A stretch of DNA of 64,000 bases from Nitrosopumilus sp. (GTDB lineage: Archaea; Thermoproteota; Nitrososphaeria; Nitrososphaerales; Nitrosopumilaceae). The stretch covers positions 160,001 to 224,000 of the forward strand of contig CBDBCE010000004.1 in assembly GCA_965203315.1 (NCBI GenBank), in the 5' to 3' direction. Positions 60,015 to 64,000 of the stretch are shown here, in pieces (positions within the stretch are counted from its first letter, which is position 1; every line of letters begins with the position of its first letter). The notes below the pieces were generated by a model. The model saw nothing but the letters and a program-made list of their open reading frames with translations, was not told where the DNA came from and ran no database searches. The translations under genes and the position numbers were made by a program.

Positions 60015-60515
60015 GTTACTCGTATAACCCTCGTGTATAAAGATCAAGCCACAATCAAATTCCTAGTCGCAATGATGACCTTGTCTCAATATGGATGTAG
60101 ATGATCTTTGATCTAAACTTCTAATTAAACGGATAGAATTTATGTTTTGAATGTATTGATCCATGATTGTAGATCGGTCTCATATGCGTGTGCGAAACCA
60201 AAGAATCGACATGTTTTGTGTGATCGAAACAATCGTGATTATCTGTCAAATTGATCTAGTGAATAGCCATGAAACCACGCCTTGCCGACGATCATGTTGA
60301 TCATACGATGCATTGCTATTCATATGGTTTAGTATATCTCAACTGCTATCAAACTTGGTAATTTTTAATGAAATGTTTGGTTTTAGTCCCTCAATGAGAC
60401 ATGGTTCTGGGCATTCTTGTGGGAAGAGATCTGTTGGGAGAGATCAAAAAAGCTTAAATTCACTTTATTATCGACTCAATTAGGGTTAAGAATTAAAACA
60501 AAAAAATCAGTCCAT

Positions 60516-61649
60516 GTGAAAAAGTTTGCAAAACTGATCCTCAGTGACGGAACCGTACTTGAGGGTCAAGGTTTTGGATACTCTACTATCTCCTTTGGTG
60601 AGATCGTATTCAATACTGGGATGGTTGGTTATACTGAAGCACTAACTGATCCATCGTACAGAGGTCAGATCTTGACATTGACGTATCCTCTAGTTGGTAA
60701 TTATGGCGTTCCAGATCCATCGATCAAAGACAGGTATGGGATACCAAAGTTCTTCGAGTCTGATGTGATCCAACCTAGGGGTTTGGTAGTTCACGAGCTA
60801 TCTCTTACCGCGAGTCATTGGAACATAGCAATGACTCTTGATGAGTGGATGTATAAACACAAGATTCCAGGAATATCTGGGATCGATACACGAGAGCTTA
60901 CAAAGAAACTGAGAACAGGTGGTGTGATGATGGCAGCACTCGCAGTCTCTGATGACTATATCGATACATCTGTTGTCCAAGATCAACTAAAGACAGCAAC
61001 ACCATACAACTCGGAGCAGTTTATGAGTCAGGTATCTACAAATGAGGTTAAAAGGTATGGGAATAGTTCTAATGTTGTAGTTGTGATTGATACAGGTACA
61101 AAATATGCGATACTACGAAATATTCTAGATATGGGGTACAAAGCTGTGTTGCTTCCATGGGACTCTACGTTTAAAGATATCATGTCACACAATCCAAAAG
61201 GTGTGGTTCTTAGCAGTGGGCCTGGCGATCCACAAAAATGTCCCAACACAATCGAGACTGCAAAGAGTTTGATTAAAAATAACGTTCCAACTTTGGGAAT
61301 ATGTTTGGGAGCTCAGATCATTGGAATTGCAGGAAATACAGAGACATACAAGTTAAAGTATGGACATCGTGGACAAAACAAGCCTTGTATCAATCTCTTA
61401 AACAATCAAGTGTATGTTACTAGTCAGAATCATGGTTATGGTATAACTCCTGAATCGTTAACCCGATCTGAATTTGATTTATGGTTTACAAACGCAGACG
61501 ACAAGACAGTTGAAGGAATACGACATAAAACAAAGAGCTGTATAGCCGTACAGTTCCATCCAGAAGCATCGCCGGGTCCATACGACTGCAAGTTCGTCTT
61601 TGAAGAGCTACGATCCCTTATGGAGGAGGAAGTACCTGCCAAAGCGTGA
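60516..61649 (+). CDS. carA: Carbamoyl-phosphate synthase small subunit
   Basis: GEIVFNTGMVGY.E.LTDPSY.GQ, SGPGDP, LGICLG, GHRG.N, SQNHG, VQFHPEASPGP; start uncertain (GTG 60516 chosen). Confidence 0.95.
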   Translation: MKKFAKLILSDGTVLEGQGFGYSTISFGEIVFNTGMVGYTEALTDPSYRGQILTLTYPLVGNYGVPDPSIKDRYGIPKFFESDVIQPRGLVVHELSLTASHWNIAMTLDEWMYKHKIPGISGIDTRELTKKLRTGGVMMAALAVSDDYIDTSVVQDQLKTATPYNSEQFMSQVSTNEVKRYGNSSNVVVVIDTGTKYAILRNILDMGYKAVLLPWDSTFKDIMSHNPKGVVLSSGPGDPQKCPNTIETAKSLIKNNVPTLGICLGAQIIGIAGNTETYKLKYGHRGQNKPCINLLNNQVYVTSQNHGYGITPESLTRSEFDLWFTNADDKTVEGIRHKTKSCIAVQFHPEASPGPYDCKFVFEELRSLMEEEVPAKA

Positions 61650-64000
61650 GACACTATCAAAGATCCTCGTGTTGGGCAGTGGGGCAATAAAGATCGGAGA
61701 AGCCGGCGAAAGTCGCTAAAACGACCGTCAATTTGACTACTCCGGGAGCCAATGCCTCAAAGCGATACGCGAGGATGGGTTAAAGAGCGTTCTGATAAAT
61801 CCCAACATTGCAACTATACAGACTGATACGCGGTTTGCAGATAATGTCTATTTGTTACCGGTAAATCCAGAGTATGTTGAATCGATAATCGAGAAAGAAC
61901 GACCAGATGGAATAATGCTTGCCTATGGTGGACAGACAGCACTAAACTGTGGCGTGCGATTACACGAATCTGGAGTATTTCAAAAGTATGGGATCAACGT
62001 TCTTGGTACTCAGGTACCGGGAATTCAACGTACAGAAGATAGACAGTTGTTCAAAGACGCAATGCGTGAAGCAGGTGTACCTGTACTGAATAGTAAAACC
62101 GTGACAAACTTTGAAGATGCAAAAGAGGTAGCTAAAGAACTGAACTATCCTGTGATAATTCGAGTTGCATATACGCTAGGTGGTAGAGGTGGAGGTGTTG
62201 CACACAATGAGATTGAACTACACGAGATAGTTGAACGAGGTATCAAGGCATCTCTAGTTGGCCAAGTTTTAGTTGAAGAGTACATCGGACATTGGAAGCA
62301 GATCGAGTATGAGATAATGCAAGACTATGATGGCAATAATGTCATTGTATGTAACATGGAGAACGTACTGTCCATGAAGGTTCATACTGGCGATAATATT
62401 GTGGTGGCTCCATCACAGACGATAAACAATCACGAGTATCACATGCTGCGCACTGCGGGGCTTTGCGCAACAAAACACGTTGGAATTGTTGGAGAATGTA
62501 ATATTCAATACGCTCTCGATTCAGACTCTGACAGATTTGTTGCAATCGAGATAAATCCAAGACTCTCTCGTTCTTCGGCACTAGCAAGCAAAGCAACCGG
62601 TTATCCACTAGCGTACATGTCGGCCAAGATAGGTCTAGGTTACAATCTATCTGAACTTGTAAATCGAATAACAAAGAGTACTACTGCATGCTTTGAACCC
62701 TCTCTTGACTATATTGTATGTAAACACCCACGATGGGATTTTGCAAAGTTTGAGTTGGTAAATCCTAGACTTGGACCAACTATGAAGTCTGTCGGCGAGG
62801 TCATGGCGATCGGTCGTACATTTGAAGAGTCGTTACAAAAGGCGATAAGGATGCTCGGTATCGGAAATGACGGCCTGGTGCTAAACCGTAATCGAGACAT
62901 ACAATACAACGAGGAAGAGATCGAAGATCGTCTAGCACATCACGATGACAAGATACTGTACAATGTTGCACTGGCACTAAAGATGGGAATATCCGTAGAA
63001 AAGATATATCAACTATCTTCTATAGATCCGTGGTTTATCGAAAAGATACAAAATATCGTAGACATGGAATCCAAATTAAAGAATCGAGAGCTGAATTCAA
63101 GTCTGATGAGATCTGCAAAACAGATCGGATTCTCTGACCGTCAAATAGCACGTAGTACAAATCAGACCTCAGATCAGATTCGAGATGTGCGTAAAGAGAT
63201 GGGTGTCATACCTGTTGTCAAACAGATCGATACTCTGGCTGCCGAGTGGCCAGCAGTTACAAACTATCTCTATCTGACGTATGGCGGTGTCACAAGTGAT
63301 ATTGAGACAAAGCCTGATGAGCAAGGCGTAATAGTTGTAGGTGCAGGACCATACAGAATAGGAAGCAGTGTAGAGTTTGATTGGGGAACGGTAAATATGG
63401 TCTGGGGACTACAACAGAATGGACAAAAGAACGTCTCTGTAGTGAACTGTAATCCAGAGACTGTGTCTACAGATTATGATATCTGTACTAGACTATACTT
63501 TGAAGAGTTGACTCTTGAGAGATTGCTAGACATTGCAGACTTTGAATCTCCACACGGTGTAGTGACATGTGTTGGTGGTCAGACTGCAAACAATCTGACT
63601 CTTGGACTGGCACAACATGGGATCAACATAATGGGTACATCTGCAGCCGATGTTGATAGGGCTGAAGATAGATCCAAGTTTAGTGCTGAATTAGACAAAT
63701 TACACATACAGCAGCCAAAGTGGCAAGCGTTTTCAAATATTGGTGCAGCAAGAGAGTTTGCTCAAAGAGTAGAGTTTCCCGTGATCGTCAGACCATCGTA
63801 TGTGTTGTCTGGCGCAGCGATGAAGGTTGTATGGTCGTCAGATGAGCTCAAGAGATACGTCAAAGAGGCCACAGACGTATCTCCAGATCATCCGGTAGTG
63901 ATATCAAAGTTTATGCTCAACTCACTAGAGGTTGATGTAGATGGAGTCTCTGACGGTACCCATGTTATAATCGGTGCAATCGTTGAACATATCGATAGTG
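61636..64000 (+). CDS. carB: Carbamoyl-phosphate synthase large subunit (runs off window), interrupted by 21-nt intron candidate
   Basis: CTG-PKRETLSKILVLGSGAIKIGEAGE [SR*NDRQ] FDYSGSQCLKAIREDG..VLINPNIATIQTD, then GGQTALN, YTLGGRGGG, EINPRLSRSSALASKATGYP, MKSVGEVMAIG. Confidence 0.95.
61711..61731 (+). other. Candidate BHB-type archaeal intron in carB mRNA
   Basis: AGTCGCTAAAACGACCGTCAA; central helix GGCG/CGUC, bulges AAA and AAU, intron hairpin GUCG-CUAAAA-CGAC; excision restores GGC GAA TTT GAC. Confidence 0.85.

Follow-up and report, generated by a model that had tools for sequence, protein, structure and literature searches.

A predicted bulge-helix-bulge intron in the carB reading frame of Nitrosopumilus and related archaea

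The carB gene of a Nitrosopumilus sp. genome, which encodes a core enzyme of arginine and pyrimidine synthesis, is interrupted near its 5′ end by 21 nucleotides (nt; positions 61711–61731) that are very probably a bulge-helix-bulge (BHB) intron of the carB pre-mRNA. The gene lies in a stretch of 64,000 nt (the window; forward strand of contig CBDBCE010000004.1, here G000:C5:160001-224000) of a 2.47-Mb genome, G000, that is 99.98% complete. According to our model, the last bases of exon 1, GGCG, would pair with CGUC close to the insert’s 3′ end, giving a helix of 4 base pairs (bp) flanked by one 3-nt bulge per strand, with an intron hairpin closing the 5′ bulge. A heterotetrameric endonuclease, composed of catalytic alpha and structural beta subunits, would cut inside each bulge, RtcB would ligate 61710 to 61732, and the mature mRNA, reading ...GEAGE-FDYSG..., would encode full-length CarB of about 1082 amino acids (aa). 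A BHB intron in carB had been proposed in a preliminary description of the window made from its letters, and comparison with other genomes supports that proposal through the insertion site, the insert lengths, covariation, codon constraint, Pfam continuity, precise loss and the presence of EndA and RtcB genes.

Translation in the carB frame gives the conserved N-terminus KILVLGSGAIKIGEAGE, then seven surplus codons (SR*NDRQ, the asterisk marking the stop) and next FDYSGSQCLK, so that the description of exactly 21 nt with an in-frame TAA inside a conserved CarB N-terminus was accurate. The TAA is the sole stop of the carB frame up to the window end, and on the whole-genome contig exon 2 stays open for 1057 codons, in agreement with the earlier statement that the rest of the visible gene is intact. 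In the Pfam family PF25596 (CPSase_L_D1), profile positions 3–20 lie in the 25-aa exon-1 peptide and positions 21–117 run on from the first residue of exon 2; removal of the insert therefore leaves neither a gap nor a surplus residue. The peptide across the exon junction, IGEAGEFDYSGSQCLK, is contiguous in the stored protein P0002.

Neither an assembly artefact nor another intact carB, two of the circumstances that the preliminary description had named as speaking against it, was found. Contigs from two runs of two studies (X1, depth 347; X4, depth 86; either may itself be the source of the assembly) cover 61400–62400 with 0 differences, 0 gaps and no joint, and no second carB was found in the 99.98%-complete genome, where the remaining matches were two unrelated loci at 28–38% identity and one 25% match at a later point of this carB frame. 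The insert is genuine DNA; the stronger argument for this is that hundreds of independently assembled genomes share the feature. With up to 4 mismatches allowed, the 21-mer still has no second copy in G000; it is therefore not a repeated element, and a repeated mobile insertion resembling a miniature inverted-repeat transposable element was rejected. Run X4 also holds a 151-nt contig (record 4) that matches the window at 61675–61709, up to the 5′ bulge, and then carries different letters; it probably represents a co-occurring relative with a differently sequenced carB intron.

The same site is occupied in many relatives. A DNA search of 41 relatives located an insert at this codon boundary in 14 of 29 loci, and among 80 named loci obtained by protein-guided retrieval, 50 had a same-site insert and one more was interrupted by the end of its contig. 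Named carriers include Nitrosarchaeum, Nitrosotalea (with Nitrosotalea sp. TS), a metagenome-assembled genome (MAG) of Cenarchaeum, Nitrosotenuis (with Ca. Nitrosotenuis chungbukensis MY2) and some Nitrosopumilus (with Ca. Nitrosopumilus salarius BD31). Across the class, a pattern of the two exon motifs with 12–42 nt allowed between them matched 231 of 401 genomes (226 of 396 when five unpublished genomes are left aside), compared to 1 genome for a reversed-pattern control; the contiguous, intronless motif was present in 95 of the same 401. By family, the insert pattern was found in 150/223 genomes of f1, 69/78 of f15, 4/4 of f4, 3/11 of f10, 1/1 of f13, 1/1 of f2 and 2/9 of f18, one f18 match (G100) looking false by eye. 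In genus g1, 22 genomes with the insert and 61 with the contiguous motif make up all 83. Outside the class, a same-site insert was detected in 3 of 341 sampled genomes of the phylum (G547 and G577 of family f59, G583 of f65), which are 3 of the 26 genomes of their class; exon 2 in these is open to the end of the retrieved locus DNA, for 504, 126 and 504 codons, respectively.

Several of the retrieved records have peculiarities of their own. G330 and G410 each gave two intron-pattern matches, those of G330 on different contigs (C10 and C35), suggesting two strains in one bin or a duplicated carB. Locus L053 (JALUTL010000388.1) is a 2.5-kb contig binned as ‘Candidatus Heimdallarchaeota’ that carries an intron-bearing carB of Nitrosopumilaceae type, 86% identical to that of the window, and L073 (JAICOU010000010.1), a contig of a ‘Nitrososphaeraceae’ MAG, groups with Nitrosarchaeum; both are probably binning or labelling errors.

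Among the 138 loci that have both exon motifs, 94 carry the insert, in 63 distinct versions of 17, 20, 21, 22, 23, 26 or 30 nt. None of these versions is open: 25 shift the frame and 38 hold an in-frame stop, and the insert is thus predicted to be impassable for translation. All 63 would block translation if retained, and excision at the bulges, which joins the two parts of the Pfam profile, would restore a functional product. Upstream of the insert, all 94 loci have kept exon 1 conserved and in frame; read by eye, exon-1 variation in alignment A1 falls on third codon positions, except for one Ile/Val column. These observations bear on the possibility that a fixed insertion has damaged or split the gene, so that carB would be either a pseudogene or the source of a shorter CarB whose start lies inside the gene, for instance at TTG 61852, as gene callers take it. 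The in-frame TAA, the lack of a canonical start at the conserved position and stored gene calls of 995–1017 aa are what such damage would leave behind, but we regard it as very improbable given an exon 2 open for 1057 codons in a genome with no other carB, an in-frame, conserved exon 1 in every insert-bearing locus, and a state kept in 231 of 401 genomes, for which no pseudogene would last. A protein initiated in exon 2 would moreover miss profile positions 3–20, and one started at 61852 would lose 65 conserved residues.

The stored protein of this gene has 1017 aa, counted from TTG 61852, and its three closest relatives, at 92% identity, have 1013, 1013 and 995 aa. Of the 120 proteins listed, the remaining 116 are 85–88% identical and 1080 or 1082 aa long, and the two of these that were retrieved, P0002 and P0029, have a contiguous N-terminus. 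The expectation that annotation pipelines would mis-call carB was therefore correct, the stored call being an N-terminally truncated protein, and such mis-annotation affects pathway reconstructions and pseudogene counts for these lineages. Separately, stops were noted 162–438 codons into exon 2 in five public assemblies (L059, L091, L097, L108 and L100, among them BD31 and MY2). Those of L059, L091, L097 and L108 are 1-nt frameshifts, one in an A-run, with two N in the region of L108, and that of L100 is a single point nonsense codon; they were rejected as further introns and look like assembly errors or decay.

BHB motifs are defined by two 3-nt bulges on opposite strands with a 4-bp helix between them, at exon-intron boundaries (as given in the accessible portions of PMC6379350 and PMC5829648). 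All the helices, bulges and distal pairings of the preliminary description, UCGGAG/CUCCGG and the second pairing GGGGCA/UGCCUC included, are found in the window (Table 1). The inner helix h′ closing the 5′ bulge is provided by the intron hairpin, which is 100% paired, and no outer helix h directly closes the 3′ bulge as in the strict hBHBh′ form; pairing resumes further out, from 2 nt (C-G) to 8 nt (UCGGAG/CUCCGG). Because the 3′ bulge is closed only loosely by a distant exon-exon helix, the carB motif would belong to the relaxed HBh′ class, in line with the earlier assignment, which the absence of pairs next to the 3′ bulge bears out. The portion of PMC5829648 available to us still counts HBh′ motifs as BHB introns for (alpha-beta)2 enzymes. 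A cut after the second base of each bulge, as had been proposed, yields a fitting mature junction; the exact positions rest on the BHB rule and are uncertain by up to two bases, because both bulges begin with AA and the mature sequence comes out identical whether the symmetric cuts follow bulge nucleotide 0, 1 or 2.

We next compared the geometry of the insert across 82 distinct contexts. Spacing is fixed in 82/82, with 4 helix nt and 2 bulge nt ahead of each junction, the central helix forms 4/4 pairs in 73 contexts and 3/4 in the remaining 9, and the hairpin has at least 4 bp in 81, its sequence varying among lineages yet always pairing. The first bulge reads AA/A in 45 contexts, AG/A in 36 and AG/U in 1 (the stroke marking the junction), and the second AA/U in 66, AG/U in 14 and AU/U in 2. 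Over 63 sequences, the 17-pair model is 96.8% paired, compared to 20–57% with slid partners; over 66 sequences, the central helix and hairpin together are 98.5% paired, compared to 15–59%, with both-sided changes in 6 of the 8 core pairs. The central helix alone is 97% paired, with compensatory changes, so that aligning carB 5′ ends for same-site inserts with such changes, a check suggested in the preliminary description, revealed both. Lineages whose exon 1 encodes GQAAE have the helix GCGG/CCGC, and ammonia oxidisers, with GEAGE, have GGCG/CGYC or GGUG/CACY. We consider the slid-partner control and this GCGG/CCGC switch to be the firmer tests of the predicted helix, and the switch appears to be the firmest single observation.

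The exons are constrained as well. When the 82 contexts with the insert were compared to 39 without it, the codon GGC was used in 80/82 versus 5/39 and GAC in 79/82 versus 3/39; on the 5′ distal strand, GGA was used in 80/82 versus 6/39, and on the 3′ distal strand TAC in 81/82 versus 11/39 and TCC in 78/82 versus 3/39. The distal helix is built of codons, and only in contexts with the insert is their synonymous choice fixed. A rival explanation is a programmed translational bypass, in which ribosomes would take off at the Glu codon, skip the 17–30 nt hairpin and land at the Phe codon with the RNA uncut, as in phage T4 gene 60. A stop codon soon after the take-off site, within a stable hairpin, and a short insert are indeed features of such a site. 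In T4 gene 60, bypass depends on take-off and landing codons that match each other. Immediately ahead of exon 2 stand the triplets CAA, TAA, CAG, AAA, AAG, AAT, CAT or TAG, and GAA or GAG in 0/82 contexts, leaving the take-off codon GAA/GAG unmatched in 82/82. Bypass also leaves the conserved 4-bp exon-intron helix, its compensatory changes and the fixed 3-nt bulges unaccounted for, and offers no account of a geometry equal to that of the organism’s own tRNA introns; we find it hardly credible.

The geometry of the carB insert, both helix and bulges, is, read by eye, equal to that of the introns in the tRNA-Tyr(GUA) and tRNA-Ser(GGA) genes of the same genome, where a cut after the second bulge base gives the canonical 37/38 intron. 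The program aragorn reported tRNA-Gln and tRNA-Thr at C1:40493-42191 and C1:597739-599623 with ‘introns’ of 1601 and 1787 nt, which are most likely false joins, the alternative being split or long-intron tRNA genes. Apart from these two, six tRNA genes of the genome have introns of 15–71 nt.

The genome encodes one RtcB and two splicing-endonuclease genes of PF01974, ORFs L115:1468-2001 on the minus strand and L116:1180-1809 on the plus strand. Paralog 2 has an Ala aligned with a His of the M. jannaschii enzyme that we take to be the catalytic His, suggesting a structural beta subunit. Paralog 1 matches catalytic alpha chains of crenarchaeal heterotetramers end to end, its alignment to that of A. 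pernix, 3p1z_B (7e-41), being ungapped, and Lys occupies the sites that correspond to K44 and R46 in the specificity loop of A. pernix, residues that confer cleavage of relaxed motifs according to the accessible part of PMC3241643. We predict paralog 1 to be a catalytic, alpha-like subunit of the type that accepts relaxed motifs, and the host thus encodes a putative relaxed-motif endonuclease together with an RtcB ligase.

Removal at the RNA level by something else, either another endonuclease and ligase or a small self-cleaving fold, is in our view highly improbable. It would fit all comparative data, as any RNA-level removal does, and the role of EndA is itself predicted from genes; the conserved features (a helix of 4 bp and a 3-nt bulge on either strand), however, are exactly those that define EndA substrates, and EndA alpha, EndA beta and RtcB are all encoded. 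An insert of 17–30 nt could not, to our knowledge, accommodate a group I or group II intron or any known ribozyme, and no Rfam family matched positions 61500–61900 at E up to 1; a self-splicing group I or group II intron and a known ribozyme were rejected on these grounds.

Several points weigh against a BHB intron. RNAfold favours a slightly different pairing, at −23.8 kcal/mol for the minimum free energy structure against −23.1 for the BHB conformer, a difference of 0.7 kcal/mol, and the single-sequence fold is unexceptional (z = −1.93, with 9 of 200 shuffles folding as well); the single sequence is therefore not decisive, and the comparative data are. The motif is relaxed, with the bases adjoining the 3′ bulge unpaired, and the 9 of 82 contexts with only 3/4 central pairs have G-A at the outer position. 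Shuffled controls reached the observed value in 0/500 cases for four measures and in 1/500 for further pair types, and they overstate significance because the sequences are related. A sceptic could read the absence of a canonical start codon at the conserved position, where CTG stands, as a second lesion. Archaeal transcription and translation are coupled, and ribosomes would have to be prevented from unwinding a motif starting 59 nt (61694) after the start codon (61636). Excision, ligation and the cut positions, finally, are what we infer from comparing sequences.

Further searches gave no additional evidence. No RNA run turned up among the sequencing runs listed for the stretch; of runs X1, X4, X5 and X23, only DNA-like contigs without joints could be placed on it, and none from the run presumed to be RNA. 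Scanning metagenomes for the contiguous junction in an intron-type exon context gave 20 contigs, many with lengths of tens to hundreds of kb, with no sign of cDNA. Most are from unrelated lineages, three are relatives of the intronless locus L098, and no contig matches an intron-bearing locus almost perfectly outside the insert. A genome-wide scan of G000, based on open reading frames (ORFs), for other stop-containing BHB inserts recovered carB and proved powerless, bearing on other genes in neither direction, with candidate numbers level with those of controls: loose settings gave 538 candidates versus 432–475 for shifted-splice-site controls, stricter settings gave 79 versus 69–87, and requiring A first in both bulges left 32 and 45 versus 33 and 42 for T/T, without enrichment.

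The history of the intron was followed in a FastTree tree of 440 exon-2 columns and 117 distinct rows, from which the five loci with stops, exons 2 shorter than 1200 nt and duplicate proteins were excluded. On this tree the intron state must have changed 11 times or more, with supported branches forcing at least 6 of the changes; the deep branches are intron-bearing, and intron-free rows cluster in marine Nitrosopumilus and Nitrosopelagicus-like lineages. The intron appears to be old, with carriers across the order, in other parts of the class and also in a second class, and the tree, although unrooted, points to an ancestral intron with repeated precise loss, notably in most marine Nitrosopumilus. 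One recent precise loss seems visible: intronless L098 and intron-bearing L105 are sisters (support 100), and a metagenome contig, L154, shares 98.0% identity with L098 and 96.2% with L105, its alignment to the latter containing precisely 21 gap positions.

The position of the window’s own gene in this history is mixed. At 61560–61900, which takes in the end of carA, the CTG and the intron, the closest DNA is that of intron-bearing relatives (80% to G021), whereas the exon-2 protein tree groups this genome with three intronless Nitrosopumilus (support 95); the nearest database proteins (92% identity) are truncated calls that are presumably intron-bearing. This conflict points to carB having recombined internally or to several recent losses.

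The codon at the expected carB initiator (61636–61638) is CTG, not ATG, GTG or TTG, and the 3′ end of carA overlaps the start of carB by 14 nt. The preliminary description had held that unspliced mRNA would yield only a 27-aa peptide; the in-frame TAA is there, and the length presumes initiation at this CTG. Of 94 loci with the insert, 54 have CTG at the initiator position, and none of the 44 intronless loci that were scored does (18 ATG, 23 TTG); the intronless L098, outside those 44, has it as well. As only 3 independent pairs lie on supported branches (sign test, p = 0.25), we make no claim of an association with the intron. In L009, L010, L046 and L111, the open frame upstream of the intron lacks ATG, GTG and TTG altogether; in these lineages carA extends into carB, with GGAGG 8–15 nt upstream. 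Initiation at CUG, coupling to the termination of carA or some other explanation is possible. The loci concerned include L006–L011, L043–L064 and others, and some Nitrosotenuis-like loci have CTA, AAA, CAA or CAT at the initiator position.

That splicing acts as a regulatory switch is speculation. One such scheme, which we consider unlikely, is a checkpoint in which the intron would be kept since full-length CarB needs EndA/RtcB processing before ribosomes unwind the motif; CUG at the initiator position in most intron-bearing lineages would slow initiation and give splicing time, arginine and nucleotide precursor supply would be tied to RNA-processing capacity, and the intron would predate the split of two Thermoproteota classes. 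If true, this would link arginine and nucleotide precursor supply to RNA processing in organisms that do much of global nitrification.

Table 1 Features of the carA–carB locus and of the predicted fold of the insert (window positions).
Feature	Position	Strand	Basis or remark
carA, glutamine amidotransferase small subunit ORF	60417..61649	+	ORF list; stop TGA 61647-61649
carB exon 1, 25 codons, LPKRETLSKILVLGSGAIKIGEAGE	61636..61710	+	translation; Pfam CPSase_L_D1 profile positions 3-20
5′ strand of distal exon-exon helix, UCGGAG; pairs with 61740-61745	61694..61699	+	95.4% of cells paired over 63 sequences
Central 4-bp helix, exon-1 strand GGCG	61705..61708	+	97% paired; GGUG/CACY and GCGG/CCGC in other lineages
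5′ bulge AAA; predicted 5′ cut between 61710 and 61711	61709..61711	+	cut placed by the BHB rule
Predicted intron, 21 nt, AGTCGCTAAAACGACCGTCAA; in-frame TAA 61717-61719	61711..61731	+	
Intron hairpin: GUCG 61712-15, loop CUAAAA, CGAC 61722-25	61712..61725	+	100% paired; both-sided changes in 4/4 pairs
Central helix, intron strand CGUC	61726..61729	+	pairs with GGCG 61705-08
3′ bulge AAU; predicted 3′ cut between 61731 and 61732	61730..61732	+	cut placed by the BHB rule
carB exon 2, begins FDYSGSQCLK; continues beyond the window end to G000:C5:224674, 1057 codons	61732..64000	+	Pfam CPSase_L_D1 profile resumes at position 21
3′ strand of distal exon-exon helix, CUCCGG	61740..61745	+	
Internal TTG, start of the automatically called truncated 1017-aa ‘CarB’	61852..61854	+	ORF 61852..; P0001 begins MLPVNPEYVE

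The insert occurs in ammonia-oxidising archaea, which are abundant, cultivable and represented by transcriptomes, making the claim of a carB intron directly testable. A very short, deeply conserved and repeatedly lost intron would be a clean system for studying the gain, upkeep and loss of BHB introns in protein genes, and it also bears on how splicing coexists with coupled transcription and translation. A full-text literature search returned no report of a carB intron, although subscription papers or supplements could mention one.

HAC1 and XBP1 mRNA is spliced in the cytoplasm by IRE1 and a tRNA ligase, Rlg1 in yeast and RtcB in the case of XBP1, and this splicing is an established stress switch. 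Like the predicted carB splicing, it removes a short intron from a coding region with a protein endonuclease and a tRNA ligase and changes the protein made; the abstracts of PMC2965688 and PMC8718801 and a title cited in PMC6379350 touch on it. The endonuclease and its recognition motif, however, are different from those proposed for carB, for which regulation is only a possibility.

Archaeal tRNA introns are closer in form: as in carB, exon-1 bases pair near the 3′ end of the intron, a 4-bp helix lies between 3-nt bulges, the cut falls after the second bulge base, and the same enzymes are expected to act. The carB substrate differs in being an mRNA without a tRNA body, with an outer helix that is made of codons and displaced from the 3′ bulge.

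Among mRNAs, HVO_1309 of Haloferax volcanii is likewise a substrate of the splicing endonuclease with BHB sites, and removal of its intron appears to be needed for efficient expression (both from the parts of PMC7714728 and PMC10485636 open to us). In contrast to the carB intron, which lies in the reading frame, that of HVO_1309 is located in the 5′ untranslated region and is cut by an alpha2 enzyme in a euryarchaeon, and these partial sources report no phylogenetic breadth comparable to that of carB.

The crenarchaeal cbf5 intron is, like that of carB, a BHB-type intron inside a protein-coding gene, often relaxed; both occur in lineages with a heterotetrameric (alpha-beta)2 endonuclease and have a patchy distribution explained by gain and loss (available part of Yokobori 2009, PMC2738675). 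As of 2009, the same partial source gave pre-mRNA splicing as confirmed only for cbf5 and counted 0 cbf5 introns in Cenarchaeum and Nitrosopumilus; in 2020, the accessible sections of PMC7714728 named only cbf5 as reported besides its own HVO_1309, and the part of a 2023 review open to us speaks of a minimum of two genes in archaea (PMC10485636). Several differences set carB apart from cbf5: CarB is a core metabolic enzyme and not an RNA-modification protein, its intron is found in a different lineage, Nitrososphaeria and one further class, and it measures only 17–30 nt and lies 25 codons from the start, unlike that of cbf5; splicing has been demonstrated for cbf5 and is predicted from sequence comparison for carB. 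With cbf5 and HVO_1309, carB would be a third archaeal case, and the only one of the three in the reading frame of a metabolic enzyme.

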